Counted from the stretch's first letter, positions 3,625 to 27,017 are shown. The stretch: 32,000 nt of DNA from Candidatus Saccharimonadota bacterium (GCA_016699205.1 CP064964.1:330001-362000); one strand, 5' to 3'. The notes: generated by a model from the sequence alone, not told the origin. Translations and numbers: made by a program.

Positions 3625-4065
3625 TTACTTTCCTTTGAAGTCTCTGATCGCCTTTACGACCTTGGAGTCTTCTTTCAGATCTTGGATGAAGAGAATTTGC
3701 TCGCGATTGATCTCCAGCTTGTCTTCCGGTCCATGCGCTTCTTTTCCAAGCTTGATCAGTGTCATGTCACCAGAGCCGAGCATGGTCACATCGGGAATCA
3801 ACCCGTCTTTAGCTTGGAAGTAGTAGACATCCGTTAGACGTACATATTTTGACCAAGGATTAGCCGCTTTTCCAAAGTAAACCTGACCGTCACTTAGGAA
3901 TACGGCCTGAAACGCATTCGGTTTAATAAGGGCGTTCAGACAAAAAATGTAGCCAATATAACCAATGATTCCGAGCAGCAAAATAAAACCAGCAACGATC
4001 AATTGACGTTTGGTGGTTGAAGTAATTTTTAGAGTAAGGGTACCTGGGTCAACAATTCTTGGCAT
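3625..4065 (-). CDS. hypothetical single-pass membrane protein
   Basis: 146 aa with one TM helix (LIVAGFILLLGIIGYIGYIF). It sits 19 nt after the mega-gene stop and 20 nt before miaB. No family recognised. Confidence 0.65.
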   Translation of the reverse strand: MPRIVDPGTLTLKITSTTKRQLIVAGFILLLGIIGYIGYIFCLNALIKPNAFQAVFLSDGQVYFGKAANPWSKYVRLTDVYYFQAKDGLIPDVTMLGSGDMTLIKLGKEAHGPEDKLEINREQILFIQDLKEDSKVVKAIRDFKGK

Positions 4066-4084: not shown

Positions 4085-7000
4085 TTACGGTGCAGGCTCA
4101 GGGGCTGGCTCTGGTGCTGGCTCCGGAGCAGGCTCCGGTTCAGGAGTCGGCTCTGGTTCCGGAGTTGGAGCAGATTCCGGGGCGGGCTCCGTGCTTGTCG
4201 GCGACGCAGGGACTTCTGGCGGCGGCTCGATACCGGTGTCTGTAGCTATGTCCGGAATGATCGGCCCACCAAGGATGATTTCGACGGTTGAAGTCGTCCC
4301 GTCGGAAATCGTCACAATGCCCTCTTCGGCTCCAAAAGCGGTCCAGTTAAATAAGACAGCCTCTGCTTGCTCCGGACGCATAGCGATATCAAACCCTTCC
4401 ACGGTCACATTTTCCACACCGTAGTCGATCGACTTGAGGCCAATCGGGGTAATGCTTACGATTGGCTGCTTGTCATACGTATTTTCAAATCGTACGCGGA
4501 GCTGTGTTGCACCGCTCAGCATTTTGGCTTGGCCAACCGTATCCGATCCAAAGTTCACCCGCTCTTTGACAACAACCACGCCGCTAAAGGTCGATGTCGA
4601 AACAAAAACGTCCGTGGACTCGATCGGCGAATCCGTCACCGTAATCGAGCCGGTTGTTGTGGCGCCGATTCTGTTTTGCAGATCCGTAATGAGACCCTGC
4701 TGCTCTTTCACCGAGTTGATCAACGCATAGGTAAGTGCGTTGGGATCAAAAGTGAATACTTCGGTTTTTTCTACATCATCTTTATTAAGCTTCATTCGTG
4801 TAGAAGAAACCATATATGGCGCGATACCCTGAACATCCTGCGCGATAACGCCGATGTAACTCGTACCAGTCGCTATGCCTCCGAGACCGTTGTAACGGAA
4901 ATGTACTGGGTTGATCTTTGTAATGACATTCAATCCATCAACAAACGAAGAGACGTCTTCTTTCAAACGCTGGTCTGAGAACGTCTGCCAGGTACCTCCT
5001 CCAATCTTTGAGGCATCTCCATTCACACTGAGTAGATTATCTGGCGCCAATGTTCCAATACCGACTTGACCTGACTCATCAATAGTAAATACGGATGCGG
5101 ATCCTGGGCGATTGGGATACACCGAGAATGTACCGTTGATATTGGCACTTCTACCCACATGCAAGCCACCTTTGACCTCAAGCTCTCCTCCGATAGAAGC
5201 GTCCTCACGCGTCGCAAGCGTATCTGTCTCCAGGCCGCCAATTTCTGCTTGCTGAAATACGGAGCCGCCTAAGTCAAACACCTCTAATATCCGATCACTG
5301 GAGTTGGGAACAAAGATATATCGACCCTGTACAGCAGCGTATTGCGGGGAGCCACCCGTCCTGTTTGAACCTAAATAGATAGGACTTGCGCGATTTGTAA
5401 TATCGATAAAATCAACCGTATCATTACCAGAAGCAGTCACATAAGCCATATCTCCTTGCACATTTACCGAGATTGGATCCCTATTCGTATTTTCCGTGCC
5501 TGACAACACTGGAGAAGCTGGGTTTGAAATATCAATTATCTCCAAGGTTCGATCTCGATTAGAAACAACGTATGCATAACGCCCCTGAACCTGAACATCC
5601 GTAGGTAAGCGATTCGTTGCAATAGTACCAACAATCGATGGTGCGCTCGGTAATCGAATGTCGACAATCTGCAGTTCTCCGGTTGAGCAAACCACGTATG
5701 CATATCGATCCTTTACCGTCATGCGCGCAGGATCGGCACAAATACCGAGACTCGTAACAGGTGTGGCTTGCGAAGGATCAGCAACATCGATTACTTCAAA
5801 GCGTCCACTATCACCCGCCGTGTATGCATAGCGACCTTGAACAGCAAGCGCCCTTGGACCAGCCGAAATCCCTTCTGCATCCGAGACACTAATATTTACC
5901 GGGTCCGTAATGTCATAAATATAGAGTAGAGCTGTGTCGTTTGCAATAACATAAACATAGTGGCCAAGAACAACGACGTCTACCGGTACCTTATCCACCG
6001 ACACAGAACCTAGCACGGCCATATTTGCAGGTTCCGTCACATCGACAATATTCAATTCGAAAGAGTTGCGATTTATTACCGCTGCGTAACGACCCTGGAT
6101 ATCGACCGCGTATGTTCCTGCCGACAGCCCAATACTACTTATCGCAGGTTGATCAAAGCGCGCCGCTACTTGAAACTGGCTTACTGGTGTCGCTGTTCCA
6201 ATGCCAACGTTTTGCGCTTCCGTCACTCGCATTACCTCAGTATTGTTTGTACCAAATACGATGGGAGTCGATATATCCGTGTTCAGCATCAATCCTGAAG
6301 GAGCATTGCTGCGAATAAAACTCCCTGTCGCAAGCGGGATATTGCCCAATGTACCCCCAACAGAAGCTCCGTATTGATAAAAGCCTAAAGTATTTCCTGC
6401 ATTATCCGATGTCCCAATTCTTGCCGTACCACCAGCATTATTACTCTTCGCAACGATCGCTGCTTCGGATAACGAGTTCTCAACGGTCAACGCCCATTGT
6501 GGATTTGTCGAATCACCAAAACCAACGAATCCATTTGCATTATTTATCACCATGCGAGAAGCAGCGCCCGGACCAACAATTCCACCAGGACCATTCAAGA
6601 TCTGGAATTGACGATCGCCATTTTGCGTCATGCTCCACGTCGAGGTTCCGAGGTTGATGGTATTGATCCAGGCGTTATTCCAACGTGAAGTGGAAGCGCC
6701 GAGGTCAAAGGCGAGGCCGGTTTGCGGGAGAATTGTTTGAAACGTGGAGGTATTTTGAACGTAGATAGGGAGTGTCGTTGTGTTTCCGCGAGCGGTAACG
6801 GTCTGGAAGGTGTCAGCGGAATTGGTACCAGTTGCAACAACAGCCCAACCCGTAAGCGTATTGGTACCCGTCTCCTTGATGTACATGCGGCCATTCGTTG
6901 AATCGATCGCAAGATCACCGATAGAACCGGTTGTGTTTCCGTTAGGCACGGCATCGACACGGAATAACTGGAAGTCACCCCCAGCATTAGCGACGGTCAT

Positions 7001-9859
7001 GATTGCTTGTGTATTTGTTGCGCCGTTATTAAACCGCGCGGCGAGATTTGTGCCGCCGCTCAAGCCTGCAAGAGCAATGTCAAGACCAATGTTTAAACCC
7101 GTTGAATTTAGACCGCCGTCATCGGGATTAATAATGAGCTGAGTCGTATCCCCTGTTTGGTTACCAGAATTAGTCGCGCTCGCGATTCTTTGACCAAAAC
7201 GAGCTGTTCCAGAACCCGTTAGTGCGTTGTTTACACGGAATTCGCGATTTGATTGGACAATGTTAGCGCTCGTGATCGAAAAATCCGCCTGCGTCGTTCC
7301 GCCATTGGCGCCAAGGTGCAGCTGCCTTCCGGTTAATGCATTGATGTACGTATCTCCGCTAGCCGTACGAATTGTAAAGACATCAGAGCTGTTGCCTTGT
7401 TGCGCATAAATCGTGTCCCCTGCGCCCGTTACTCTGAGCGCGTGACTTGAGGCGCTTGCACCTACATTCATCGTATAGTTACCGCCGCCGGTCGTCTCAC
7501 CTGCAACCGTCACAATACCTGTTGTACCCACCGTGATGCGATTCGTGCCGTTTGTTTCAAGCGCTAAACTCTGCGTATCATTTGTTCCGAGCACCGCGGT
7601 TGCGCCAAACGAATTACCATTTTGCTGGAAGAAGTTGCTCGTCGAAGGGATCGTACCCGTCGCTATAGAAACCCATCCGGTATTTGTTCCAGCACCCGTC
7701 TCCTTGAGATAGAGCCGGCCATTCGTCGAGTCAACCGTCAGATCGCCCTGCGAACCCGCAATCAGACCCTCGGGCGTGGTTGAAGCATTGAAGATCTGGA
7801 AATTGCCGACAGGATTCTCTACCGTCAAAATACCGACCGCTTGGTTGGAAGTGCTCAATAAATGCAGCTTGGTCGCTGGGGTCGATGTACCAAAGCCGAC
7901 ATTGCCTTGGACAATGAGACCATTTGCCGGGGCGTTCACTGTTGAATACCCTGTTCCTCCGACCGCAAGCGAGCCATTTACACTCAGTCTATTTGAGGTA
8001 TATGGAACCGTTCCGATTGCGACTCCGCCCGTGGAGCTGACCGCAATAAATGAAGCTCCATTATACATCAGATCAAAACGGTTAGGAGCTGTTCCGTCGC
8101 TCGCCAATTTCCATTCATTTGTATCAGATGTCCCGACTGCTAAATAAGCATTGTTTGTAGCACGAACCGTTATTCCGTCTCCATTACCAACATTTACATA
8201 CAGCTTAGAAGTCGGGTTAACCGTGCCAATACCAACGTTTCCACTTGTTGCCGAGATCGAGAAGCGTTCATTTCCGGTTCCTGATCCACCGTCAAAAATC
8301 GAGAAACGTTGACCGGCGGATTGCGCTAACGACCAGGTCGATGTTCCAACATTCACGATGCCCGCAAATAATTGCGCCCAGCGTGTTGTCGTTGAACCAA
8401 GCGAGTAGGTATTGTGAGCTTCCGGGATAATGTCGCGGAAGGTTGAGGTGTTTTGTATGTAGATCGGGAGCGTGGTCGTATTTCCGCGAGCGGTGACCGT
8501 TTGAAGGGTGTCGGCGGTATTTGTACCCGTAGCCACACCGACCCATCCCGTGTTGGTGTTTGTTCCCGTTTCCTTAATGTACATGCGACCATTCGCCGAG
8601 TCGAAGGCGATATCGCCTAGCGAACCGGTAACCGCGCCTTCAGGGGAGGCTTGCGTAACAAATTGCTGTATATCACCCCCATTATTCTGATAGGTCGTGA
8701 TCGCTGTTGTGGAAGCAGCGCCTGTACCGATATGCAATCGTGCGGTAGCGGTTGTTACGCCGACACCAAAGTTGCCCGTGTTATTAAAGACACCGACTTG
8801 TGAACCACCGAGGTTGAGACGCATGTGCGTGCCGCTCGCCATGACGATACCCGTGCCGGAGCGGTTGGCGATATTGAAGTAGTCAGCGCCAAAGGAGTTG
8901 CCTAAGTACTGGATCATGCCCGAATTTGTACCAGTCGGATTTGTAGCATCGGCTGAGAGATACATTCGCGCACCGTCGGAGTCGGTGTGGAAGCTATAGC
9001 CGTCACTCGTGCCGCCGGCAACGATGCGGAAGTGAGAAGGCGAGAGGCCGCCAGATACAGGGACGCTTAGCTCAACCGGGCCTGAATCAACGACAATAAC
9101 TCGTCCGGCTCCAGCGCCGGTGTCATCATAAGCAGAATCGAGGGAGTTGCCCGTACTGCTCGCACTCGACAGCGCGAACCATCCTGTATTACCACCGTCT
9201 GTTGTCTTTACGTAGAGCTGTGATGCGCCGTCCGGACCATCGGTTCGCATGTATAAGCTACCGGAGTCGGCCGTATAGACACCTTCCGGACTACCCGTAT
9301 TTACGAACATGTTAACGGATCCGCCGGTCTGTGAAAGTTGAAGCAGTGATACATCCCCAGAAGCTGCCGCGTTGAAATTAAAACCGTATGTCACGGCACT
9401 TTGGTTGGCGAAAAAATTGATTGAAGAACTGTTATGACTGATATCCATCGAGTCATAGTTCATCTCAATATTTGCCGTCTGCCCTCCAAGCACATCAAAT
9501 AACGAATACGCCGCTACCGGATATACACCACCGGTGTTCGTAAAATACATCGATGCGTATGAGGAGTTATCAAAACGATCGACACCTTCACCTAGTTTTA
9601 AAAAGTCGATTCGATTTGGACCGGCATTTAATTTACCGACCGAGAAACCAGTCGATGTCGCATTACCGTCAATCCCGTCCCCTCCGATGACAAATGCCGG
9701 ATTGTATCCGAGGAATGATTGTGACCTCGAGGGGGCAAAAATGGATACTGGTTGCCCCTCAAGAGCTGTGATCGTACGACCCGCGTCGTAAGCGCCCTGC
9801 AAGGATCGGTGCCTCCAACATAGCTCGCAAAGGTGGAAGATGTAACGATCGCATCCCAA
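4085..9859 (-). CDS. giant tail-fibre-like surface protein, distal 1,924-codon ORF (knob/shaft repeats, LVIVD propeller, S74-type chaperone domain, lectin-like domain, PE-rich tail)
   Basis: Long uninterrupted ORF with Ser/Thr/Gly/Asn-rich repeats. Motifs are described in the findings. The listed start is a TTG with five stops directly upstream, no signal peptide, and a junk-like first ~20 residues. The true 5' end is therefore probably in the upstream ORF. Confidence 0.85.
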   Translation of the reverse strand: MGCDRYIFHLCELCWRHRSLQGAYDAGRTITALEGQPVSIFAPSRSQSFLGYNPAFVIGGDGIDGNATSTGFSVGKLNAGPNRIDFLKLGEGVDRFDNSSYASMYFTNTGGVYPVAAYSLFDVLGGQTANIEMNYDSMDISHNSSSINFFANQSAVTYGFNFNAAASGDVSLLQLSQTGGSVNMFVNTGSPEGVYTADSGSLYMRTDGPDGASQLYVKTTDGGNTGWFALSSASSTGNSLDSAYDDTGAGAGRVIVVDSGPVELSVPVSGGLSPSHFRIVAGGTSDGYSFHTDSDGARMYLSADATNPTGTNSGMIQYLGNSFGADYFNIANRSGTGIVMASGTHMRLNLGGSQVGVFNNTGNFGVGVTTATARLHIGTGAASTTAITTYQNNGGDIQQFVTQASPEGAVTGSLGDIAFDSANGRMYIKETGTNTNTGWVGVATGTNTADTLQTVTARGNTTTLPIYIQNTSTFRDIIPEAHNTYSLGSTTTRWAQLFAGIVNVGTSTWSLAQSAGQRFSIFDGGSGTGNERFSISATSGNVGIGTVNPTSKLYVNVGNGDGITVRATNNAYLAVGTSDTNEWKLASDGTAPNRFDLMYNGASFIAVSSTGGVAIGTVPYTSNRLSVNGSLAVGGTGYSTVNAPANGLIVQGNVGFGTSTPATKLHLLSTSNQAVGILTVENPVGNFQIFNASTTPEGLIAGSQGDLTVDSTNGRLYLKETGAGTNTGWVSIATGTIPSTSNFFQQNGNSFGATAVLGTNDTQSLALETNGTNRITVGTTGIVTVAGETTGGGNYTMNVGASASSHALRVTGAGDTIYAQQGNSSDVFTIRTASGDTYINALTGRQLHLGANGGTTQADFSITSANIVQSNREFRVNNALTGSGTARFGQRIASATNSGNQTGDTTQLIINPDDGGLNSTGLNIGLDIALAGLSGGTNLAARFNNGATNTQAIMTVANAGGDFQLFRVDAVPNGNTTGSIGDLAIDSTNGRMYIKETGTNTLTGWAVVATGTNSADTFQTVTARGNTTTLPIYVQNTSTFQTILPQTGLAFDLGASTSRWNNAWINTINLGTSTWSMTQNGDRQFQILNGPGGIVGPGAASRMVINNANGFVGFGDSTNPQWALTVENSLSEAAIVAKSNNAGGTARIGTSDNAGNTLGFYQYGASVGGTLGNIPLATGSFIRSNAPSGLMLNTDISTPIVFGTNNTEVMRVTEAQNVGIGTATPVSQFQVAARFDQPAISSIGLSAGTYAVDIQGRYAAVINRNSFELNIVDVTEPANMAVLGSVSVDKVPVDVVVLGHYVYVIANDTALLYIYDITDPVNISVSDAEGISAGPRALAVQGRYAYTAGDSGRFEVIDVADPSQATPVTSLGICADPARMTVKDRYAYVVCSTGELQIVDIRLPSAPSIVGTIATNRLPTDVQVQGRYAYVVSNRDRTLEIIDISNPASPVLSGTENTNRDPISVNVQGDMAYVTASGNDTVDFIDITNRASPIYLGSNRTGGSPQYAAVQGRYIFVPNSSDRILEVFDLGGSVFQQAEIGGLETDTLATREDASIGGELEVKGGLHVGRSANINGTFSVYPNRPGSASVFTIDESGQVGIGTLAPDNLLSVNGDASKIGGGTWQTFSDQRLKEDVSSFVDGLNVITKINPVHFRYNGLGGIATGTSYIGVIAQDVQGIAPYMVSSTRMKLNKDDVEKTEVFTFDPNALTYALINSVKEQQGLITDLQNRIGATTTGSITVTDSPIESTDVFVSTSTFSGVVVVKERVNFGSDTVGQAKMLSGATQLRVRFENTYDKQPIVSITPIGLKSIDYGVENVTVEGFDIAMRPEQAEAVLFNWTAFGAEEGIVTISDGTTSTVEIILGGPIIPDIATDTGIEPPPEVPASPTSTEPAPESAPTPEPEPTPEPEPAPEPAPEPAPEPAP
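4088..4200 (-). repeat. tandem 6-nt-periodic repeat encoding the C-terminal PEPAPE/PEPEPT tail
   Basis: The plus strand reads ggtgcaggctcaggggctggctctggtgctggctccggagcaggctccggttcaggagtcggctctggttccgga. On the minus strand this translates to ...PTPEPEPTPEPEPAPEPAPEPAPEPAP*. Confidence 0.85.
4670..4985 (-). other. S74-type intramolecular chaperone / autoproteolysis domain inside the giant ORF
   Basis: GGGTWQTFSDQRLKEDVSSFVDGLNVITKINPVHFRYN...IGVIAQDVQGIAPYMV...LTYALINSVKEQQGLITDLQNRI. The SDxRLK motif (Ser codon TCA at 4978..4976) plus the terminal coiled helix is the hallmark of the endosialidase/tail-fibre chaperone domain. Confidence 0.75.
5263..6120 (-). other. seven LVIVD-type repeats (predicted 7-blade beta-propeller) inside the giant ORF
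   Basis: There are seven ~42-aa units of the form V(Q/K)GRYAYVV...(L/F)ExIDIsxPxxPxxxG. Examples are VQGRYAYVVSNRDRTLEIIDISNPASPVLSG and VQGRYAYTAGDSGRFEVIDVADPSQATPVTS. Confidence 0.75.
8391..8512 (-). repeat. intragenic DNA repeat, copy in the 1,924-codon ORF
   Basis: Hand alignment to 11726..11847 gives 99 of 122 identical positions. A ~59-nt core has only 4 mismatches (gaggtgttttgtatgtagatcgggagcgtggtcgtatttccgcgagcggtgac). It encodes ...TARGNTTTLPIYIQNTSTFRDIIPE.HN.YSLG. Confidence 0.8.
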
Positions 9860-10751
9860 TCACTATTATCACCATCACAGGTTGTTTAACAAACAATTGA
9901 TTTGTAGCTCCAACTGCATCCGTCTGAAAGTAAATTGACCCACTTTCAGCTACGATTACGCTCTCCGGGGACCCGACGCCAACGTACTGAATGATGGATG
10001 CTACATCGGTATCGTTCGACAAACGCAATAACGCCTGCTGATTTGCGTTTGCAGAATTGGAAATATTCATCGCTGCAAGTGAACTGATTTCCGTATTGTT
10101 CAGTGCAAAATTGGATTTCGTGCTACCGCCATTGCCTAACAAAGAAAAACCAAAGCTGTTTAGATCATGGTTGTAGTAAGCAAATGTTCCTGATGCCCCG
10201 GCTGGATTCAATACATCATCCGTCATGCCAAATGATGAAATATCATTTGCGAAATTTGATCGGCCAAATACGATTCCTCGGCTCGTGTTCAAATCGGTAG
10301 TGATGGCGAGACCTGGCACGCTTGAGAACGCGCCGGGTGTAGGCACCGAGATATAGACCGGGGTTGAAGTCGATGATGTCAAAATTGCATTGCCGCCGTC
10401 ATAAGCAGTTTGAAGAGATACTGCCGTCGTTGTTGACGTTAGCGAGGAAACATCCGCAAGTGCAACCCATCCCGTCGTACCACCCCCATTAAAGACCTTT
10501 ACATAAACCTGCGTTGACGAGCTGCCGCTTGAATCCGTGCGGTAGTACATAGAACCGAGCGTTGCAGAAACGACTCCTTCCGGATCACCCGTTCCTACGT
10601 ATTGATTCATTGCAGCCACGTTGTTGGCTAAACGTAATACGCTCACTTCCGGGGCCGTCGAGTTATTGTAAATGAGCACGGCTCCATCCGTCCCAAATCC
10701 TGTCAGCGCAATCTGACCATCGCCGATAATATCAACGTCCGTAGCCTCCAA
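9759..10751 (-). CDS. middle fragment (330 codons) of the tail-fibre-like mega-gene; probably not an independent gene
   Basis: TTG start with no SD and no signal peptide. It contains two knob motifs. Its last ~40 residues look out of frame, and the repeat modules continue across both of its borders in other frames. It overlaps the next ORF by 101 nt. Confidence 0.6.
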   Translation of the reverse strand: MEATDVDIIGDGQIALTGFGTDGAVLIYNNSTAPEVSVLRLANNVAAMNQYVGTGDPEGVVSATLGSMYYRTDSSGSSSTQVYVKVFNGGGTTGWVALADVSSLTSTTTAVSLQTAYDGGNAILTSSTSTPVYISVPTPGAFSSVPGLAITTDLNTSRGIVFGRSNFANDISSFGMTDDVLNPAGASGTFAYYNHDLNSFGFSLLGNGGSTKSNFALNNTEISSLAAMNISNSANANQQALLRLSNDTDVASIIQYVGVGSPESVIVAESGSIYFQTDAVGATNQLFVKQPVMVIIVIGMRSLHLPPLRAMLEAPILAGRLRRGSYDHSS

Positions 10752-10797
10752 GAAAGCCGTGCCAGACTTGGATTGAAGGCAATACGCGCTCCGGAAT

Positions 10798-13700
10798 TTA
10801 ATAAACCGAGCTCAAATCATTTGTTTCTTTTGTATGCGAAAGATAGCCCGTGTAGGTGGTAGACCAGTTTGTTAAATCATTACCAAAAACAGCGACCGTG
10901 CCGCTCGAGAACCCAAAATCAAATGTTCCCACCGAGAAACCACCGGCTGTGTCGGTAGGACTCTGTATCTGGATAGCGGGATAGTAGTCGAGGCCGCCGC
11001 TAACAACTCCGCTGACATTAAGCTGAACCGGACCGCTGTCGAGTGAGATAGCACGTCCACTGCCGGCGCCAGATGCGCCGTCGTACGCTAAGTCGAGCGT
11101 TGGAAATGCCACAGACGTGCCCGTAGCTACTCCAACCCATCCGGTATTTGTATTTGTTCCTGACTCTTTGATGTAGAGTCGGCCGCTTGTGGAATCGACA
11201 GCTAAGTCGCCACGAGATCCAGTAATAGAACCATTTGGGTCCGCCTGAATAGTAAACAGCTGATAGTCGCCTGCCGTATTTCCGATCGTCATGATCGGCG
11301 TTGTGCTTGCGCTAGAGGCCAACAAATCGAGCTTTGTTGCCGGTGTCGATGTTCCAATACCAACAAACCCATTTGGCATGATGATTCTGGCTGCGTTGTC
11401 ATCGACACGGATAAACGTATTGGAATTCCAGCCGATATAATCTCCAATAGAAACCGTATTTGCTACTGGATCAAGCAAAAAGATCTCTTCACCGCTATTG
11501 CCGCCCATCAAAACACTTCCTCCTAGCACATGCAGACGCGCAAGCGGTACCGTCGTTTGATCAGAAGTACCAATTCCAACATCTCCATTTGGATTGACAC
11601 GGATCGAGTCATTTAAATTAGCGGTGTTTCTCAATGAGAATCCGGCATTTGATGCTTGTTCCAAGGCCCAGGTACTTGAACCGACATAGGTCGTAACCGC
11701 GTACAGCTCTTTCCATCGCGTTGTTGTTGTGCCGAGCGAGTACAGGTTGTGCGTTTCCGGAACAATGTCTCTGAACGTCGAGGTGTTTTGTACGTAGATC
11801 GGAAGCGTGGTCGTATTTCCGCGTGCGGTGACGGTTTGTAACGTATCGACTTCCGTCCCGGATCCTGTTCCCGTGGCAAACGGAGCCCAGCCCGTAACCG
11901 TGGCTGTGCCAGTTTCTTTAATGTAGAAACGCCCCCCGACAAGATCAACAGCAAGATCCCCTATCGATCCAGAGACAAATCCTTCTGGTGACCCCGTTGC
12001 GTTGAACATCTGAATGTCCCCATTCGTATTTTGCAAGGTGAAAATCGGAACGATGGTTGACGCGCCGGAATTTACTTGCAATCTCGATGTCGCCGTTGTG
12101 ACGCCGATCCCCAAACTACCCTCCATCACGTTCAAGGAGTTTGATCCAGCCGAATACAGATTGTAATTGTTTACTCCAACACCTGCCTGATTTGCCAAAA
12201 AAAGACCGTAGTTATTCGTAATCGTTGCACCAGCGCCATTATTAAAGGTCTCGCCATAAAGCGCATAGGCACTCGTTACATTTCCCGCTCCAAACGAATA
12301 GGACTGTCCAAACACGCCAATCGAACTTCCGATCGTTCCTGTTCCACCAATGGCGGAAATACCGATTGAGCCATACGACGTTTGCAATAACCCGGTGCCA
12401 ATATGTGAAACCTGGCCTCTGACACCTGAAATTTCGCTTGTAAAATTTGTCGCGCCAGCTGTTTCTACAGAAGATTCGTAGGCGCTTACAGATGCGGGTG
12501 TACTAGCTTCACCAGAATTCAGCCTCAAAAACGATGCGACACCGCGCGTATAATCGGCGAGAGGGCTTGTAAACTCTTCCTCTACATTCAGCACCACCGA
12601 GCCCGGTGTGCTCGCGAACACAGATCCTCCGTCAATAATTCCGGAGTTTCCTACGGTCATATGACCGAGAATCTGGAAATTGTCAGAGACCGTCGAGGTT
12701 CCTGCGCCGGTGATATTAAGGACACCGGTTGAGGTACCGCCCGCAAACTGAATCGTGTTCGTAGTTGAATTGCCGCGGTTCGTGACGGTTTGTAACGTGT
12801 CGACTTCTGTGGTTGATACATTAGAAATTGCGAGATCTAAATCATCCAATACATCCTGAATATTGGTCGCGTTAGAGAAGGTGAATTCATCAAAGACACC
12901 GATCAACCAGGCACCGGAGTTCGTGGAGGTTGTGCCTGTGGCATTGATGGCAATCGTGTTGATGTAGAGGGTGTTGGAGAGATTTAGGGAGACACCGGTC
13001 GCCGAATCAAAGTTGATATACGTCGCACCGACATTGGTCGCAAACAGATTGGTGCTCGTCGTATTGGTACCCGTCGCATTCACCCAGGTGATGTCTGTAA
13101 AGTTGGCTGCACCGAGAACGTTAAGATTTGTTGTTGTCACTGTTCCAAACTCGCCATTCCAGCGATTGGCGGCGCTTCCAAGGGAGTAGGCAAGGTCGAG
13201 AGCTGGAACAAGGTCGGTGTTGAAACGGCCATTCACCGAGATAAGATCGGCGGAAGAACTGCCCAAGGTCGTATTCCCCTGCACATCAAAATTGCCAGCG
13301 ATCGTGGAAGTAACGGTTGAAGAGCTCATCGTGAAGTAGGCTCCGAGGAAGCCTCCGGTCAGGATGTTGAAATTCAGGTTCTGATCGAGAGCAAGAAGCG
13401 TGTTGGCAGCGGCCGTCGAGGAAGCGGAGAAGGTGTCGACCGCTTCTGCATTCAAAGCGTATGGAAAGGCCGAGAGCTGAACGCGGGGGTTGGCTTCTGC
13501 ATCCGCGCCGATACGGACACCGAGGAAGAGCGTCTGGTTCCAATCGATGTAAGACGGGAAGACAGCACAGGCGGAACCGAGCTGAACAGCAAAGTAGCCA
13601 TCAGCATCCGGGGTGATTTGGGGACAAGCACCGCCATCGTAGACACCCTTCCAGAGAAGCGGACCGGAGGAAGATGCGGTGTCGGTGTATGCACCCAACG

Positions 13701-13908
13701 TCTGGGACGAGTAGATGCTGAATTGAATGTCCGTCGGAACCGTAATAGGAGCAAGGGTCGATGAACGGAGGCGAGATTGGTAGTTAATTTCCCGAGGAAC
13801 GGAAGCAAGCGCGGAATTTACTTGAAAGAAACCTAAGATAGCGAAAAAAACTACCGTGAATACGGCTATCAAAGAGCGGAAGGTGCTTTTCTTACCCGAA
13901 AGGGGCAT
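10798..13908 (-). CDS. giant tail-fibre-like surface protein, proximal 1,036-codon ORF with signal anchor
   Basis: It has an N-terminal signal/anchor (KKSTFRSLIAVFTVVFFAILGFFQVNSALA). The head begins REINYQSRL...FSIYSS...LLWKGVYDGG. It carries the fibre motifs LAYSLGSAANRW and LYSLGTTTTRW and two knob motifs (GGRFYIKETGTATVTGW, SGRLYIKESGTNTNTGW). Confidence 0.85.
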   Translation of the reverse strand: MPLSGKKSTFRSLIAVFTVVFFAILGFFQVNSALASVPREINYQSRLRSSTLAPITVPTDIQFSIYSSQTLGAYTDTASSSGPLLWKGVYDGGACPQITPDADGYFAVQLGSACAVFPSYIDWNQTLFLGVRIGADAEANPRVQLSAFPYALNAEAVDTFSASSTAAANTLLALDQNLNFNILTGGFLGAYFTMSSSTVTSTIAGNFDVQGNTTLGSSSADLISVNGRFNTDLVPALDLAYSLGSAANRWNGEFGTVTTTNLNVLGAANFTDITWVNATGTNTTSTNLFATNVGATYINFDSATGVSLNLSNTLYINTIAINATGTTSTNSGAWLIGVFDEFTFSNATNIQDVLDDLDLAISNVSTTEVDTLQTVTNRGNSTTNTIQFAGGTSTGVLNITGAGTSTVSDNFQILGHMTVGNSGIIDGGSVFASTPGSVVLNVEEEFTSPLADYTRGVASFLRLNSGEASTPASVSAYESSVETAGATNFTSEISGVRGQVSHIGTGLLQTSYGSIGISAIGGTGTIGSSIGVFGQSYSFGAGNVTSAYALYGETFNNGAGATITNNYGLFLANQAGVGVNNYNLYSAGSNSLNVMEGSLGIGVTTATSRLQVNSGASTIVPIFTLQNTNGDIQMFNATGSPEGFVSGSIGDLAVDLVGGRFYIKETGTATVTGWAPFATGTGSGTEVDTLQTVTARGNTTTLPIYVQNTSTFRDIVPETHNLYSLGTTTTRWKELYAVTTYVGSSTWALEQASNAGFSLRNTANLNDSIRVNPNGDVGIGTSDQTTVPLARLHVLGGSVLMGGNSGEEIFLLDPVANTVSIGDYIGWNSNTFIRVDDNAARIIMPNGFVGIGTSTPATKLDLLASSASTTPIMTIGNTAGDYQLFTIQADPNGSITGSRGDLAVDSTSGRLYIKESGTNTNTGWVGVATGTSVAFPTLDLAYDGASGAGSGRAISLDSGPVQLNVSGVVSGGLDYYPAIQIQSPTDTAGGFSVGTFDFGFSSGTVAVFGNDLTNWSTTYTGYLSHTKETNDLSSVY
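11726..11847 (-). repeat. intragenic DNA repeat, copy in the 1,036-codon ORF
   Basis: Partner of 8391..8512 (see that entry). A more diverged third copy lies at about 6700..6830. Confidence 0.8.
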
Positions 13909-14030: not shown

Positions 14031-15017
14031 TTAGAATACGAGTTTCCACTTCCCCTGCTCCATCATGAACGTGTAATTTGCGATTCCGCTTGAAGTGAAG
14101 ACCTCAATGTTGATAACTTGTGGAAATATTTCGCCCGAAATTACGGACTGATACTTGTCGATTCGCTTGATACTTCCGATGTAAACCGGTCCAGAAGAAA
14201 GATCGACCGGGGTGAAGTTCGTCTTATACGAGTTCACGTACTGATCCTGAGAATAGCCTGCCTTGATTTTATCTGCGGTAACTTGCTTATAGAGATTGCG
14301 CTTGTCCCCTTTTGCTTCAAGCTCGGCTACCTCGACGAGCGACTGCATAAGTCCCGGATCAAAGATGAGATCAATCTTGCCCGGGCCCTGGACCTCTTTG
14401 TTGATAACGCGCTTTACTGCCGGATGTGAGATGCGGATTCCGGCCTCCGAGGATACCGATGGGAAGGCAAACATACCGCTCTCCCCTGTCACGATACTCG
14501 TATCTCCCGAGATCAGCGTTGCGCCTTGGACAGGCATGCCGTTTGCGTCGACTAATGCACCGCTTACATCTTTTACCATCATTTTTTGACCTGGAGCGAT
14601 ATAATTCATCGTTTTCTCAAGAATCGATGTACCCCAGTTCAGCGTGAGACCGACAATGAGCGACAAGACAACCATTACGACAGAGAAATACATTGCATGA
14701 CGCAAATATTTCTTCTTTTTCTTGAGATCAGCGTTTTCGTCGGCGATTTTTCCAAGTCGGATGTTATTTGCAGCCAAAATCAGAATGATGACCAGAAAGA
14801 ACAGGAAGGACAGACCAAAAACCGGAGGCATAACCTGCGTTAAACGGTCGACCATGCTGCGCTCAACGTAAAGCAGCGCATCATCCTGGGCCCCGTTATC
14901 GTCCTCAACAACGACTTTATGTAAGCCGGCCGGAACATTTGGCGGCACCTCGATCTGCCAGGTTCCGTTTGGCGCGATCTCGGCTGTGCCGGTCGCGATG
15001 ATTGTTTGGTCGGCCAT
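14031..15017 (-). CDS. two-TM membrane protein with an N-terminal half Ig-like domain and a CarboxypepD_reg-like domain
   Basis: ATG at 15017 (MADQTIIATGTAEIAPNGTWQIEVPPNVPAGLHKVVVEDDNG). The ORF is open up to 15071, and the track lists a TTG at 15065. It has two TM helices (VFGLSFLFFLVIILILAA, AMYFSVVMVVLSLIVGLTL) separated by a KKKKK loop. VSGALVDANGMPVQGATLISGDTSIVTGESGMFAF resembles a carboxypeptidase-regulatory-like fold. Confidence 0.75.
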   Translation of the reverse strand: MADQTIIATGTAEIAPNGTWQIEVPPNVPAGLHKVVVEDDNGAQDDALLYVERSMVDRLTQVMPPVFGLSFLFFLVIILILAANNIRLGKIADENADLKKKKKYLRHAMYFSVVMVVLSLIVGLTLNWGTSILEKTMNYIAPGQKMMVKDVSGALVDANGMPVQGATLISGDTSIVTGESGMFAFPSVSSEAGIRISHPAVKRVINKEVQGPGKIDLIFDPGLMQSLVEVAELEAKGDKRNLYKQVTADKIKAGYSQDQYVNSYKTNFTPVDLSSGPVYIGSIKRIDKYQSVISGEIFPQVINIEVFTSSGIANYTFMMEQGKWKLVF

Positions 15018-15021
15018 AGTT

Positions 15022-17544
15022 TTAGTAAATAATGATACGAATATTTCCAACTCCGCCGCTTCCAAACAAGTTCAATGTACCGCCAACCGGAGCAATATTC
15101 TCGATCTTAGGACCATTTCCTGTACCCGTGGGCTGAGTCGATACTGTTGGCGGACGCGTTGGGTTGACAGGTGTATTCACCTGCACAGGAACGACGCCGT
15201 TACGCGAAGGGCGGGTGGTCGTGCGCGATGGAGCCGGTGTCGGAGCTGGCGCTGGACAAATCAACTCCGTTGGAATCGGCGTACCTTCCTCGCTCAAAAT
15301 ACGCGTTGAAAAGACCGGCGTCATCAAGACTTCTTTACCGTAAACTTCTTGTCCGTTGGACTCCGTGATTGGACGGAAATAGTAGAGTTTTCCAGCTTCA
15401 AGGCCATCGATTACGACCGCATGATAGGTATCATTGTGATTGTATTCTGGCGTAGAATTATCGTAACCGTAATTTGGACGAAGCGTCATATCAACCGATG
15501 TTTGCTCGCCGTAAACAACGCGCCCTGTGCCGGGACGGTTAGACAGCCAAGAGACGAGTACAGAATCCCCGTCAATCTGGTCAACGCGTACCGTGGTAGC
15601 GTTGATTTCAATAACATAAGAGGTTCCGCCGCCGCCAGTCGTAGGACAGCTTGTGACCGTAGTTGAGCTAGCGGTTCCAACGCAAGATGAGCCGTTCCAG
15701 GTCGTATTTACGCCGCAGAATGTTGCACCGGAAGGACAGACGCCTGTACCGTTCGCTACCAACCCGTAGACAACACGCGGCATCAAATTGTTACTCGTAT
15801 CACGTGAGTAAATAATAACCGGAATCGCTTCACCGTCTGCAAATGTTAGCGGACCAATGTTGAAATCGTATTGATTCGTCGAGGTTGAAACGTAGAACGG
15901 CGTGAAGTTCGTAGAGGTCGCAAAGGAGATGATTGTTCCTGAGAGCGTGACTGACCCTGCGCCACCGCCAGCCGAGTAGTAGATACCGTTAATGAAGATC
16001 ACGGTATTGTTAATATCAACGCCCACACCGTCATCACGCAGACCGAACTGTATATTCGTGGATGTTGCTGCAATTTGATCGTTGTCAGGCAATTTGTTGA
16101 TAACGTACGGCGGATCCGTATCTGAGGTATCAAAGAACCAGTTGTCGTCGGCCATTGTGTTAGCAACTAAGTCCTGACAAGCGTAAGCGCGCACCCAAAC
16201 GCGTTCATTTTGTGCAAAATCGGTAGCCGGGTTGATGACGTACTGAAAACCGTAAGAGATCGGGTTGATCGTCACGAATGCACTCGGCAAAGCGTACGTT
16301 GTCGTAGCCTGAGACTCGGACCAGACATCAAAAGCACAGGTCGTTGTAGCAACACCGACACCGGACGGACCTGCTGGGTAGGTTTTACGATCTTCTACGT
16401 TAATCGTAATATTCGTCGCGATTGAATTTCCAGCGCTACTTGCAGCCGGTGTTTCACTCACGACTTGCGGTGCAACCGTGTCTGGCTCCGTGGTAAAGTC
16501 AAAGCACTTGGTTAGCATCGAGTTAGGACCATTTGGTTCACCGAGCTGGTTCTGAGACGCCGACGCCAAGTCCTGATAGTTAGCAATACAAAGCTGATAG
16601 GCTTGGTTATAGAGCCAGTTTCGCGTATCCCCTACAATTCCTAGCGGGCTTGGCGGGTCGATGGTGGTGTTACAGACATTCGTACCCCAGACACCGGAAC
16701 AGGAATAAGCATCAAAACTTGTTGGAACAAAGTGCGTTGGAGTAAGTGTGAGCGTGCCAGGAGGTGTTGCCGTATTTACACCAGTTCCAACGCCGCCAGC
16801 ATTGTTAGCTGTAGAGGTTGAAAAACCTTCACCGTCGCGAGTATCGAATAAGCGGAATAAGTAGTTCGCATCGATAACGACACCCGTGGTGCCCGAGGCG
16901 ATGTTATTTGTTTCCGCGAATGGGCGGATCGTATCGGCCCAAAAGTGGACTTGAAAATCTTCTGCGCTGTCGAGCAAATCGACGCCGGCATTGGAAATAT
17001 TTGATTCCGTTGTAGCCCCAATGACGCCGATGTTTATATCCAAAGTTGCCGGACTCGAGGTTGCGCGCGCTAACGAATTTGGACGGCTTACCGTCCAGTC
17101 GACATTTCCAAAAGTCCCTGTACCGGAAGAAACGGATACCGGAATGTTAGCACCCGTAGAGAAAACGCGACCAACGCCTGGAGAAACCGTCGAACTCACG
17201 TTCTGACCGCTCCACGTGTTAAAAAATGAGCCCGTTGTTAGGTTGGAGGCCGTCGTGGTTGTTGACGGATAATCGATCCAAATATTGGCAGCCGTTGCTC
17301 CTGGACCCGTTGATCGGATTTGGATCACTGACGTAAACGTCTGACCGACATAGTAGTAGTTCAGGTCAGAACCATTTCCCGTGTTTCCATCACCCGTATT
17401 ATCAGAACCTGTTTGCTGGTTGGTTAGGAGCTGGAACCAGTCGGCTCCGGTTGGAGCGGCGGCTTGCGCCATGCCGGACATGCCAATCGCTAGCACAAGG
17501 CCGAGCGTGGCAAAACCTGCAAACCGTCGGAAGAGATGTTTCAT
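15022..17544 (-). CDS. secreted 840-aa surface protein (cohesin-like N-terminal module, Fn3/PAP-N-like module, Pro-rich linker, truncated Ig-like end)
   Basis: Signal peptide MKHLFRRFAGFATLGLVLAIGMSGMAQAAAP. I prefer ATG 17544; the track start is GTG 17562. VRVDQIDGDSVLVSWLSNRPGTGRVVYGEQ...YHAVVIDGLEAGKLYYFRP is Fn3-like. The linker reads APAPTPAPSRTTTRPS. The protein ends ...LNLFGSGGVGNIRIIIY*. Confidence 0.85.
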   Translation of the reverse strand: MKHLFRRFAGFATLGLVLAIGMSGMAQAAAPTGADWFQLLTNQQTGSDNTGDGNTGNGSDLNYYYVGQTFTSVIQIRSTGPGATAANIWIDYPSTTTTASNLTTGSFFNTWSGQNVSSTVSPGVGRVFSTGANIPVSVSSGTGTFGNVDWTVSRPNSLARATSSPATLDINIGVIGATTESNISNAGVDLLDSAEDFQVHFWADTIRPFAETNNIASGTTGVVIDANYLFRLFDTRDGEGFSTSTANNAGGVGTGVNTATPPGTLTLTPTHFVPTSFDAYSCSGVWGTNVCNTTIDPPSPLGIVGDTRNWLYNQAYQLCIANYQDLASASQNQLGEPNGPNSMLTKCFDFTTEPDTVAPQVVSETPAASSAGNSIATNITINVEDRKTYPAGPSGVGVATTTCAFDVWSESQATTTYALPSAFVTINPISYGFQYVINPATDFAQNERVWVRAYACQDLVANTMADDNWFFDTSDTDPPYVINKLPDNDQIAATSTNIQFGLRDDGVGVDINNTVIFINGIYYSAGGGAGSVTLSGTIISFATSTNFTPFYVSTSTNQYDFNIGPLTFADGEAIPVIIYSRDTSNNLMPRVVYGLVANGTGVCPSGATFCGVNTTWNGSSCVGTASSTTVTSCPTTGGGGTSYVIEINATTVRVDQIDGDSVLVSWLSNRPGTGRVVYGEQTSVDMTLRPNYGYDNSTPEYNHNDTYHAVVIDGLEAGKLYYFRPITESNGQEVYGKEVLMTPVFSTRILSEEGTPIPTELICPAPAPTPAPSRTTTRPSRNGVVPVQVNTPVNPTRPPTVSTQPTGTGNGPKIENIAPVGGTLNLFGSGGVGNIRIIIY

Positions 17545-17551
17545 AAGAAAA

Positions 17552-18358
17552 TTATTGTTCACCGTTCAAGTCAAGATTTTTCAGCATAATACTCAAATCT
17601 ACGGAGTTGATTACAATGTCCTGGTTAAGATTTGATCTATAGGCGTTACCCGTAACATCATCCAGGTCGAGCTCCGGCAAGATCAGGGACAAATCAACAG
17701 AATTCACAACATCGTCTCCAAGTGTAGATGTTGACGTCCCCAGATCATTGATATCACCACCAAGTAATCTCAAGTCACCGTAATAACCAGGGGTATTTGT
17801 GGCATTTGTGAAGTTCAGCACCGTTGTCGTACCCGTGTTCAACGTTACATCCTGTAAAATCTTGCGAAGGTGTTGATGTGTCTTGATACCTACATCATAA
17901 ACACCTGCGGGTGCCGCGAATGAGACTGATGTCGTGTATGTACCGTCGACGGAAGTTGTCGCCAAATACGCCATGCTCTCGACAATGACGTTATCCGCAT
18001 CTCCCGGGGTATGGAGACTCAGATAAAAGATGGCGTCATCATTCGTTGATGTTGCGCCTACACGAAGCTCAGGGACGGCCCATTGAATCGAAAGATTGAT
18101 ACCCGTCGCAGAAAAAAACCAAATGGTTCCGTGATCAAAAACAAAGTTTGTCGAGGTCGACTGACCAACGCCCGGGTGACCGATTTCCGCTTTGATGTCG
18201 TAGTTTGTTGAGCCGCCTGTATACTCCACAGGGCCTCCGCGTTCTTGATTTACATCAAAGTTGGTTGACGAAGCTGCAAAAACAAGGGCAGGAACTACAA
18301 TCATGCCACTGGCAACGATGGCCAAGAAACCGTACAAAAATGAACGTCGCGAGGACAT
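17552..18358 (-). CDS. secreted protein with a C-terminal dockerin-like module
   Basis: Signal peptide (FLYGFLAIVASGMIVVPALVFAASS). It has three S(T/S)N(F/Y) motifs. The C-terminus carries two EF-hand-like repeats, LGDDVVNSVDLSLIL and NLNQDIVINSVDLSIMLKNL. These fit the dockerin pattern DxNxDxx(I/V)NxxDLxx(L/M)xK. Confidence 0.8.
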   Translation of the reverse strand: MSSRRSFLYGFLAIVASGMIVVPALVFAASSTNFDVNQERGGPVEYTGGSTNYDIKAEIGHPGVGQSTSTNFVFDHGTIWFFSATGINLSIQWAVPELRVGATSTNDDAIFYLSLHTPGDADNVIVESMAYLATTSVDGTYTTSVSFAAPAGVYDVGIKTHQHLRKILQDVTLNTGTTTVLNFTNATNTPGYYGDLRLLGGDINDLGTSTSTLGDDVVNSVDLSLILPELDLDDVTGNAYRSNLNQDIVINSVDLSIMLKNLDLNGEQ

Positions 18359-24657: not shown

Positions 24658-25230
24658 GTGAGTGAACGATATCGGACACAGAGGATCAAACGCTGGGGCT
24701 CCAAATCGGAACGGGTACAGAACCCCTACTGGTTGAACCCAAATCAGATCGAGCCTATCGACCTGGAGCATCTCTCCCGCCTGAACGAATCCGAGGATGT
24801 ATCCAGGATGCGAAAGGCTGTCGAAGAGTTTGCTGCAGCCGATGGGGACATGCTCCTCGTCCGTGACTCGGCGAATCAGGTTCATAGCGAGCACAGCCGC
24901 ATCGTCGGATTCCTCACGTTCGCGATCGTCCCTGTCCTCGATGGACGGAAGCTTATCGTGACCGGGGTTCGAATCGAACCGGAGTGCCGCGTCGACGAGG
25001 TTCACACTGTTCTCCAAGCAGAGCTTGCTGACATTGCGAAGCGTAACGACATCCGACACTTTGACCAGGTACCCAGGCCGACGAGCGAGCGGCGCGTCCG
25101 CAACTCCGGCTACAGCGCGGTCAAGATCGTCGAACGCTTTGACGATCTGGTCCCCGATGATCCCAAGATCGACGATACTGCAGATGGTACGCCGACGAGA
25201 AGAATGGGGATTCCCGGGCGTAAACACTGA
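24658..25230 (+). CDS. hypothetical protein (acidic, loosely acetyltransferase-like, not assignable)
   Basis: GTG start 5 nt after a perfect AGGAGG. Third codon positions are G/C-rich in this frame. A plus-strand terminator follows 7 nt after the stop. The fully overlapping minus ORF 24571..25227 is its antisense shadow. Confidence 0.6.
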   Translation: MSERYRTQRIKRWGSKSERVQNPYWLNPNQIEPIDLEHLSRLNESEDVSRMRKAVEEFAAADGDMLLVRDSANQVHSEHSRIVGFLTFAIVPVLDGRKLIVTGVRIEPECRVDEVHTVLQAELADIAKRNDIRHFDQVPRPTSERRVRNSGYSAVKIVERFDDLVPDDPKIDDTADGTPTRRMGIPGRKH

Positions 25231-25236
25231 CTACAA

Positions 25237-25280
25237 GACCCCTGTACCAACACTCGGTACAGGGGTCGCTGCATTTTTTA
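25237..25280 (+). terminator. rho-independent terminator of the plus-strand orphan gene
   Basis: 12-bp stem gacccctgtacc/ggtacaggggtc with a 7-nt loop, followed by gctgcatttttta. Confidence 0.65.
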
Positions 25281-25321
25281 TAAAAAAGAAACGCGCCCCA
25301 CCAGAATTGGTGGGGCGCGCG
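25280..25321 (-). terminator. rho-independent terminator of lipoprotein gene 1
   Basis: The minus strand reads CGCGCCCCACC-AATTCT-GGTGGGGCGCG followed by TTTCTTTTTTAT, starting 4 nt after the TGA stop. Confidence 0.8.
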
Positions 25322-25324
25322 AGT

Positions 25325-26116: not shown

Positions 26117-26171
26117 TCGCCCTCCTTTTTGGGGCTAGAGGTTAAAGAGCTATCCAGAATCTGAACATCGA

Positions 26172-26200
26172 AATATAGCATAAAATAGGGGTTTTGTCAA
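26172..26200 (-). promoter_or_regulatory. strong sigma70-type promoter of lipoprotein gene 1
   Basis: The minus strand reads TTGACA-17 nt-(TGC)TATATT: -35 at 26200..26195 and -10 at 26177..26172, with an extended -10 TG. Confidence 0.6.
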
Positions 26201-26240
26201 TGGAATAAGAAGAGCCCTCCAATAGGCATTGGAGGGCTCA
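26200..26240 (-). terminator. rho-independent terminator of lipoprotein gene 2
   Basis: 12-bp stem gagccctccaat/attggagggctc with a 4-nt loop. The minus strand continues TTCTTATTCC. Confidence 0.7.
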
Positions 26241-26265
26241 ACAGAGCGATTATTCAGAACGCGTT

Positions 26266-26988: not shown

Positions 26989-27017
26989 CGCCAGCTCCTT
27001 TCAAGGTGCGTCAATCG

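Follow-up and report, generated by a model that had tools for sequence, protein, structure and literature searches.

The stretch of DNA analysed here (CP064964.1, nucleotides 330001 to 362000; 32 kb, hereafter the window) harbours on its minus strand a giant gene for a putative secreted fibre protein, which is the subject of this report. The gene is divided into three open reading frames (ORFs) that lie head to tail, at exactly the coordinates given by the original prediction, which had been made from the sequence alone and had described one broken gene. The complete gene, the ORFs and the lesions between them are as follows (aa, amino acids).

4085 to 13908, minus strand: whole fibre gene, about 3,277 codons when frame-corrected, stop codon at 4085-4087
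10798 to 13908, minus strand: ORF1, 1,036 aa
9759 to 10751, minus strand: ORF2, 330 aa
4085 to 9859, minus strand: ORF3, 1,924 aa
10767 to 10817, minus strand: junction 1, two single-base deletions
about 10817, minus strand: deletion in the context GATTTGAG, T-run one base short
about 10767, minus strand: deletion, no clear homopolymer
9803 to 9883, minus strand: junction 2, two single-base deletions
about 9883, minus strand: deletion in the context GTTAAACAACC, A-run one base short
about 9803, minus strand: deletion, no clear homopolymer

Three reading frames, one gene

ORF1, ORF2 and ORF3 occupy three different frames. The shifts were located by three-frame translation and frameshift-aware alignment, for junction 1 to the closest homologue, P0001 (MCC7523167.1, 3,288 aa, Candidatus Uhrbacteria SJ877), and for junction 2 to paralogous modules and P0001. 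The assumption of a single gene proved correct, with the amendment that each junction contains two 1-nt deletions instead of one shift, four in total. The 17 codons between the shifts of junction 1 encode FELGLLNSGARIAFNPS in the third frame, and the 25 codons between those of junction 2 encode CDGDNSDWDAIVTSSTFASYVGGTD, likewise in the third frame; both stretches are homologous protein. Elsewhere across the 9.8 kb there are no in-frame stops and no further lesion was detected. P0001 is uninterrupted and collinear with the window protein, with 64%, 58% and 48% identity across aa 13-2218 and 52% across the last 270 aa, and its gene lies in identical synteny (GAPDH, PGK, SIMPL, enolase, three surface-protein genes, fibre gene). 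Since the ORFs are arranged head to tail, the stretches between the shifts are homologous, other stops are missing and P0001 is uninterrupted, collinear and syntenic, the three ORFs constitute a single gene. ORF1 is 100% identical to QQR61159.1, a hypothetical protein (1,024 aa as deposited) of Candidatus Uhrbacteria encoded on a contig of 1,082,254 bp, which bears out the small-genome lineage that had been suspected.

If the single-base deletions were real, the gene would be a pseudogene or a phase-off allele, of which only the 1,036-aa N-terminal fragment comprising the head and two modules would be made and secreted, if anything. All four frameshifts fall inside about 1.05 kb, and as the remaining window genes look intact, indels are not widespread in the assembly. 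ORF1 has been deposited as a separate protein, and no database protein identical to ORF3 was found, a lack that may reflect missing annotation of ORF3 as a protein in the source record. Moreover, the internal DNA repeats of the fibre gene are only 66-81% identical and clear of the lesions, so that a collapse of repeats in the assembly does not account for the frameshifts, the repeats being too diverged and misplaced. All lesions are 1-nt deletions, however, and two of them reside in short homopolymers, the signature of consensus errors. Furthermore, the frames, with their conserved motifs, are open over 1,036 + 330 + 1,924 codons, contrary to what would be expected of a decaying gene, and the syntenic orthologue P0001 is intact. 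Because there is no other lesion, all four events are deletions and two of them affect short homopolymers, a consensus error or, alternatively, a very recent event is favoured over an old pseudogene. The sequences of the IPH19 locus-tag series, to which the source genome belongs, are presumably Nanopore metagenome-assembled genomes (MAGs) from activated sludge, in which we assume residual errors in strain-variable genes to be common. A scan of metagenomes with ORF2 for near-identical alleles spanning the frameshifts yielded only relatives at 35% identity. Taken together, we consider consensus errors more likely than a real inactivation; a pseudogene or phase-off allele is conceivable but rather unlikely.

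Domain organization of the fibre protein

Along the frame-corrected protein, a signal peptide is followed by a head of about 190 aa, a stem motif, a unique region of about 190 aa, eight modules, a propeller, a stalk of about 94 aa, a Peptidase_S74 domain (S74), a C-terminal domain of about 113 aa (Cdom) and a Pro/Glu tail. The module layout was derived from an internal repeat map (sliding-window BLAST) and a profile built from the repeats.

13801 to 13908, minus strand: Sec-type signal peptide with basic n-region, 16-aa hydrophobic core and cleavage site between ALA and S, read from the translation
13222 to 13800, minus strand: conserved N-terminal head, about 190 aa, beginning with REINYQSRL directly after the signal peptide
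13159 to 13188, minus strand: stem motif 1, YSLGSAANRW, from a regular-expression scan
11713 to 11742, minus strand: stem motif 2, coinciding with DNA repeat family D1
8378 to 8407, minus strand: stem motif 3, likewise coinciding with D1
6680 to 6709, minus strand: stem motif 4, likewise coinciding with D1
11866 to 12114, minus strand: shaft-plus-knob module 1 of 8, from the internal repeat map, as are the following seven
11116 to 11364, minus strand: module 2
10455 to 10688, minus strand: module 3
9879 to 10082, minus strand: module 4
9164 to 9406, minus strand: module 5
8522 to 8773, minus strand: module 6
7652 to 7903, minus strand: module 7
6824 to 7036, minus strand: module 8
5261 to 6115, minus strand: seven-bladed LVIVD beta-propeller, from Pfam PF08309, PHROGs and repeat spacing
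4979 to 5260, minus strand: stalk of about 94 aa from propeller to S74, ending with the shaft motif VGIGTLAPDNLLSV
4670 to 4978, minus strand: S74 chaperone/autoprotease domain, SDQRLK at 4961-4978, predicted nucleophile Ser1628 of ORF3
4277 to 4615, minus strand: Cdom, conserved C-terminal beta domain (about 113 aa) with a predicted H-type-lectin-like fold
4088 to 4276, minus strand: Pro/Glu/Ala/Thr low-complexity tail with PEPAPE repeats, from the translation

Nearly all elements that had been recognized by eye were recovered. The signal peptide (MPLSGKKSTFRS-LIAVFTVVFFAILGFF-QVNSALA, cleaved before SV) is present on ORF1 only, as predicted, and P0001 begins likewise. The expected REINYQSRL head follows in the translation; its profile disclosed no relative in the PDB. 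The stem motif (Y/F)(S/D)LGxxxxRW was found by regular expression in the predicted four copies, at positions 241, 723, 1838 and 2404 of the concatenated protein. For the shaft motif hVGIGTxxPxxxLxV, of which at least ten copies had been claimed, there are nine regular-expression matches and one longer variant, VGIGTSDQTTVPLARLHV, hence about ten. The profile built from the repeats detected all eight knobs. Each module consists of a shaft motif and a subsequent knob of about 60 aa (…SPEG…GSxGDLAxDSxNGRLYIKETGxxTNTGW), and the modules are connected by two types of linker, A (DTLQTVTARGN…YSLGxxxxRW) and B (L(D/Q)xAYDG…). A monomer model of the module obtained with AlphaFold2 (AF2) reached a predicted local distance difference test score (pLDDT) of 88.9. 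The protein is rich in Gly, Thr, Ser, Ala and Asn and nearly free of Cys, as expected of a fibre. None of the three ORFs had a match in NCBIfam, and Pfam matches were confined to ORF3.

The Pfam families proposed for the propeller and the chaperone domain both scored above their cut-offs. LVIVD (PF08309) matched with E = 9.7e-26 and 89.3 bits (cut-off 20.2); the seven predicted blades are discernible as h-x-h-h-D-h motifs with a period of 42-43 aa, and the propeller is also matched by the unnamed phrog_22523 (E = 2.4e-23). Peptidase_S74 (PF13884), proposed as a chaperone domain on account of the SDQRLK motif, matched with E = 2.9e-10 and 40.7 bits (cut-off 22) over aa 1628-1684 of ORF3, starting from SDQRLK, and the same region is covered by phrog_1980 'tail fiber protein' (E = 7.7e-19). 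In 17 of 18 aligned S74 domains of the fibre family SDxxxK is kept. On the basis of this conservation of Ser and Lys, autoproteolysis by S74 is probably functional. The domain is internal, with about 190 residues (Cdom and tail) beyond it, and does not take the position at the C-terminal end that characterizes an intramolecular chaperone.

The best solved match of stalk and S74 is the ICA domain of MyRF (7dc3; E = 2.7e-5, 140 aligned residues), the stalk aligning to the beta-helical stalk upstream of that domain. Both proteins possess a VGI-T-xPdxxL loop and an S/A-D-x-R-x-K motif. MyRF itself is a membrane-bound transcription factor of eukaryotes, and only the trimerizing, self-cleaving module is in common.

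For the beta domain behind S74, which had been called lectin-like, the outcome was mixed: a lectin-like fold was predicted by AF2 and Foldseek, but no match to H_lectin (PF09458) was obtained in Pfam at E <= 0.1. A profile of 16 Cdom sequences searched against the PDB gave the H-lectin domain of discoidin-2 as best match (E = 0.06). The core of the AF2 model (residues 32-105) has a pLDDT of about 90, and its top four Foldseek matches in the PDB were H-type lectins (probability 1.0, TM about 0.57 on the target, E about 3e-3). The agglutinins of Helix aspersa and Helix pomatia, coral SLL-2 and discoidins I/II were followed by the C-terminal domains of phage tailspikes (LKA1 gp49, phi297 gp61, Pam1) and by knobs of R-pyocin fibres. 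The H-type lectins and the tailspike and pyocin C-domains all form trimers and are six-stranded beta-sandwiches located at the tips of fibres. Cdom shares 10-24% identity with these domains and, in contrast to them, is placed after the S74 cleavage site. We regard Cdom as lectin-like in its predicted fold and as lying outside the membership of Pfam H_lectin; the fold evidence is moderate because it is prediction-based with an E value of about 3e-3. The PEPAPE tail was found in the translation as predicted. It contains no sortase or other sorting signal, and P0001 and P0003 have similar tails.

Relationship to the MAT fibres of Bdellovibrio

The original prediction had been unable to assign the protein to any described family. 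This no longer holds, as both the shaft and the overall plan lead to the mosaic adhesive trimer (MAT) fibres of Bdellovibrio bacteriovorus, among them Bd2133, Bd3182, Bd1334, Bd2439, Bd2734 and Bd2740 (Caulton et al. 2024, PMC10769870). MATs possess a signal peptide and, in all cases, a subsequent conserved beta-rich domain of about 130 aa, and they exhibit the capping-loop motif V-G-G/N-π-x-x-P-x-x-x-L (PMC10769870). There are 21 paralogues; S74 with SDxxxK terminates 13 of them but not the other eight (PMC10769870). The tips have been swapped in evolution, and those characterized so far are binding domains; MATs are exposed at the predator's surface, and binding of glycans was shown for Bd2439 (PMC10769870).

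A profile of the shaft-plus-knob module (A4, 28 sequences) was searched against the PDB and matched four MAT structures, the matches running through the shaft part:

8ond, Bd2133: E = 8.8e-11
8ojn, Bd3182: E = 4.4e-6
8oml, Bd1334: E = 9.6e-5
8ol4, Bd2439: E = 6e-3

At the level of sequence, the shaft is thus homologous to MAT fibres. Foldseek matches of the AF2 model of the module were weak and mostly MAT fibres. The likeness extends to the plan of the protein. In both, a signal peptide precedes a conserved N-terminal domain (about 190 aa in the window protein and about 130 aa in MATs, likened by position), and a long shaft carries the capping-loop motif, represented in the window protein by about ten copies of hVGIGTxxPxxxLxV. 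Both are mosaics with one conserved end and swapped tips, and S74 with SDxxxK is shared with a subgroup of MATs. The genes are chromosomal, occur as several paralogues per genome and belong to hosts living on other bacteria.

There are also clear differences. The window protein is about three times as long as MATs (3,277 versus about 1,000 aa), neither its eight knob modules nor its two types of linker are described for MATs, and, unlike MATs, it contains an LVIVD propeller and an internal S74 followed by the H-lectin-like domain and the Pro/Glu tail. The supplementary text of PMC10769870, as far as it was available, contains neither 'propeller' nor 'LVIVD'. The MATs listed for other organisms belong to Omnitrophica, Micavibrio and members of the FCB group, with no Patescibacteria among them (PMC10769870); the lineage hosting the window gene is therefore outside this list. 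What is new here is the greater length, the propeller tip and the internal S74 with lectin-like domain and tail. The kind of fibre itself is already known, while its large family in Patescibacteria is undescribed.

Comparison with phage fibres

Upstream of the S74 chaperone of phages there is a trimeric beta-helical stalk, and S74 stands at the extreme C-terminus; in endosialidases a beta-propeller is situated just upstream of stalk and S74. Endosialidases and S74 tail fibres (e.g., endoNF of K1F, 3GW6, and the L-shaped fibre pb1 of T5, 4UW8) share S74 with its Ser-Lys dyad with the window protein, and the local order propeller-stalk-S74 is common to it and the phage endosialidases (endosialidase NF). 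It might thus be asked whether the gene is a tail-fibre or tailspike gene that a phage or prophage left in the chromosome, the product being part of a virion or of a tailocin-like particle. S74 is best known from phage fibres, and the two PHROGs mentioned above, one of them named 'tail fiber protein' and the other spanning the propeller, point in the same direction. So do the similarity of Cdom to the C-domains of tailspikes and pyocin fibres and the Foldseek matches of the module model among the viral models of BFVD, which were S74, tail-fibre and tailspike proteins.

The window protein, however, starts with a Sec signal peptide, which virion fibres do not have, and lacks a virion-attachment domain, and its propeller is of the LVIVD type instead of the sialidase/BNR type of endosialidases. 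The scan of neighbouring genes agreed with the predicted chromosomal location: the fibre gene is surrounded by housekeeping genes (EVE-domain protein, MiaA, MiaB, enolase, SIMPL protein, PGK, GAPDH, EF-Ts, S2, release factor), and no phage gene (capsid, tail, terminase, integrase) was found in the 32 kb, nor did a tRNA scan and an Rfam scan of the window give any hit. The housekeeping synteny is shared with another species-level genome, the GC content of the fibre gene is similar to that of the flanking DNA, there are several conserved-head paralogues per genome, and Bdellovibrio provides a precedent for cellular genes of this kind (PMC10769870). We therefore regard a phage origin of this sort as highly improbable. 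The reading that we pursue further is that of a cellular fibre.

A family of fibres in Patescibacteria

The combination of head, LVIVD, S74 and Cdom, which had been taken for an unmatched mosaic, recurs in Patescibacteria entries named 'tail fiber domain-containing protein', a name that P0001 also bears. Across 58 mapped homologues, conservation is seen at the two ends, head and Cdom, and the middle is composed of shuffled knobs and linkers. The head profile matched the N-terminus of about 30 homologues and was found in all 19 genome loci described below; at least 30 homologues, some with S74 and some lacking it, have Cdom as their C-terminus. An internal propeller is present in the homologues P0018, P0026, P0029, P0030 and P0055.

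A scan of genomes (one per species) with the head alignment A2 yielded 19 loci. Informative labels were Uhrbacteria, Magasanikbacteria, Parcubacteria, Saccharibacteria, Peribacteria and unclassified Patescibacteria; third-party labels of some loci as 'Gammaproteobacteria' were judged doubtful, and all 19 loci were taken to be of the Patescibacteria type. Many of the ORFs exceed 3,400 aa, and one locus (L018) shows the order of the window, head … propeller-S74-Cdom. In an exhaustive library search, the propeller-S74-Cdom cassette matched 45,006 cluster representatives at E <= 1e-3, mostly via LVIVD alone. Among the best 149 of these, 47 pair propellers with S74 and/or Cdom, 30 of which also bear the head; the longest measures 6,153 aa, and the number of propellers reaches about seven. 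Named relatives of the cassette are again Patescibacteria 'tail fiber domain-containing protein' entries (Vogelbacteria, Magasanikbacteria, unclassified Patescibacteria), and in four of them both LVIVD and S74 were found by Pfam. MCC7523167.1 (Uhrbacteria), MFH1170763.1 (Vogelbacteria), MFZ6015545.1 and MFA6604350.1 are true homologues of the window protein, with head, shaft modules, LVIVD, S74 and Cdom in common, P0001 (MCC7523167.1) itself being without the propeller and differing in the tip region. The number and order of modules differ between these entries and the window protein, and their common name is automatic and based on S74. A search of the literature on S74, tail fibres or MATs in Patescibacteria or the candidate phyla radiation (CPR) found nothing relevant and no paper describing CPR fibres.

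The source genome encodes a second head-bearing protein, P0039 (IPH19_03350), on the same 1.08-Mb contig but with a different body, and Uhrbacteria SJ877 has two head-bearing loci (L002 and L004), likewise with different bodies. Both Uhrbacteria genomes thus contain at least two head genes, which echoes the multiple MAT paralogues of Bdellovibrio.

Some further observations concern the relatives. The head also opens many short proteins of 150-380 aa in which it is followed by collagen repeats (PF01391) or by a phage tail-collar domain (PF07484), among them P0074, P0078, P0079, P0081, P0095, P0097 and P0117. They are labelled Patescibacteria, Chloroflexi (Chloroploca, Anaerolinea) and a Betaproteobacteria MAG. 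Because of these short proteins in other phyla, the head seems to be a general N-terminal module of fibrous surface proteins well beyond Patescibacteria. The Pfam family PF26696 is precomputed on many relatives, among them P0006, P0007, P0010, P0014, P0015, P0017, P0044, P0045 and P0047. In one clade, a head protein of about 850 aa and a headless protein of about 2,600-2,900 aa are encoded on the same contig (P0045/P0014 with consecutive locus tags, and P0047/P0007). A head-bearing locus on the P0045/P0014 contig (L010) reads as one ORF of 2,874 codons; split gene calls may therefore be common in the fibre family.

Proposed mechanism and function

We consider it probable that this single chromosomal gene of Candidatus Uhrbacteria (Patescibacteria/CPR) encodes a secreted fibre of about 3,277 aa, of the same kind as MAT and phage S74 fibres, which likely serves contact with a host or partner cell. 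An attachment fibre, as had been suggested originally, was also judged the best reading in our analysis. A host-contact device is plausible because the closest likeness is to the prey-recognition fibres of Bdellovibrio.

Following the domain order, the protein would be exported by the Sec pathway with removal of the signal peptide, and the head of about 190 aa would retain the fibre on the surface of its own cell. Three chains would entwine to form a long beta-helical shaft, composed of the eight shaft-plus-knob modules with their two linker types. Near the far end, each chain would contribute a seven-bladed LVIVD propeller, followed by the short stalk and S74. As in phage endosialidases and in Bd3182 of Bdellovibrio, S74 would nucleate folding of the trimer from the C-terminal side and then cut the chain at the Ser of SDQRLK (Ser1628 of ORF3). 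After the cut, the propellers would make up the distal tip and serve as a binding, possibly catalytic, end, whereas a fragment of about 300 aa, comprising the chaperone, the H-type-lectin-like domain and the Pro/Glu tail, would be released or stay bound non-covalently.

A catalytic tip would make the protein an enzyme-bearing spike, the LVIVD propeller acting on glycan or cell wall and the long stalk serving to breach the host envelope, comparable to the sialidase propeller of an endosialidase. The order of propeller, short beta-helical stalk and S74 is that of endosialidase NF, relatives with up to about seven propellers exist, and there is a weak Beta_propel match in the window propeller as well as weak SBP56 and Lactonase matches in the homologue P0008. 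Against this, no catalytic family scored above threshold, and LVIVD repeats are not known to possess an activity. The tips of MATs characterized in Bdellovibrio are binding domains (PMC10769870). An enzymatic spike thus appears quite improbable, and we return to the contact fibre.

Several points weigh against a contact fibre as sketched above. The four frameshifts could mean that the gene is dead in the source strain, and an identical database protein is missing for ORF3, with the reservation about its annotation made earlier. The AF2 models are all monomeric, and it is we who infer trimerization, cleavage, orientation and an adhesive role for the window protein. These monomer models gave weak Foldseek scores (E about 1e-2 to 1e-3). 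The head and the N-terminal domain of MATs were compared by description only, as the head profile matches no PDB structure. Finally, S74 is not terminal, and a cut would detach the conserved lectin-like domain, which a simple model leaves unexplained. Cdom is also the C-terminus of relatives devoid of S74; it may therefore be the real tip, with cleavage possibly absent or regulated. Behind the cut, Cdom and tail may represent a discarded, tethered assembly platform, or remain bound, or form the true tip of an uncleaved fibre; the terminal position of Cdom in the S74-less relatives favours a role as tip in those relatives.

A more far-reaching idea is that the epibionts among the Patescibacteria (CPR) own a greatly enlarged branch of the MAT/S74 fibres. 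Giant trimers of 3,000-6,000 aa, exported by Sec and tipped by LVIVD propellers, would act as determinants of host recognition and host range in parallel to type IV pili, and, behind the internal S74, the lectin-like domain and the Pro/Glu tail would form an assembly platform tethered to the cell wall and cut away after folding. Neither phage nor Bdellovibrio fibres have been described to mature in this way. We put this forward as a speculation that, in its entirety, is unlikely to be correct.

Other genes of the window

Further genes next to the fibre gene and elsewhere in the window are as follows.

14031 to 18358, minus strand: trio of genes encoding secreted or membrane proteins of 344, 846 and 268 aa, directly upstream of the fibre gene, from translations
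3625 to 4065, minus strand: gene for a 146-aa protein, starting 19 nt past the fibre stop codon and ahead of miaB and miaA
25325 to 26116, minus strand: gene for a predicted lipoprotein
26266 to 26988, minus strand: gene for a second, paralogous predicted lipoprotein

The upstream trio is found in the same order beside the gene of the orthologue P0001 in Uhrbacteria SJ877. The 344-aa protein contains internal membrane segments. The 846-aa protein is secreted and has a Pro/Thr-rich C-terminus; its FN3-like Pur_ac_phosph_N match is the sole Pfam match of the trio. In the 268-aa protein, a signal peptide occurs together with two dockerin-like D-x-N-x-D-x-x-VNSVDLS repeats, and a relative sought in the PDB was not found. 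The three genes may belong to a surface-protein cluster, their products acting as anchoring or assembly partners of the fibre. On the other side, the 146-aa protein has one membrane segment and no Pfam match, and its gene may be co-transcribed with the fibre gene.

The two lipoproteins carry a lipobox (LALPGC and AVSGC, respectively), an Asp-rich N-terminal part and a common 'LCIRF…' C-terminal part, without Pfam match. In the region 25001-27000, which harbours this pair, the GC content rises to 0.59-0.63, compared with about 0.50 elsewhere in the window; due to this raised GC content, the pair may have been acquired from elsewhere. The idea that the window contains the target of a diversity-generating retroelement was dropped, there being no reverse transcriptase and no template repeat in it.

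Biological significance

The fibre gene does not stand for a new kind of system; rather, it adds a further phylum, size class and type of tip to the MAT family, with a function that we infer. Apart from type IV pili, little is known of the means by which the ultra-small Patescibacteria find and hold their hosts. The genomes of Uhrbacteria and other CPR lineages code for very large fibres whose shaft is homologous to the prey-recognition fibres of Bdellovibrio and whose S74 is that of phage fibres. Head and tail of these fibres are conserved, with mosaic evolution in between, and their genes are testable candidates for determinants of host range in uncultured lineages.

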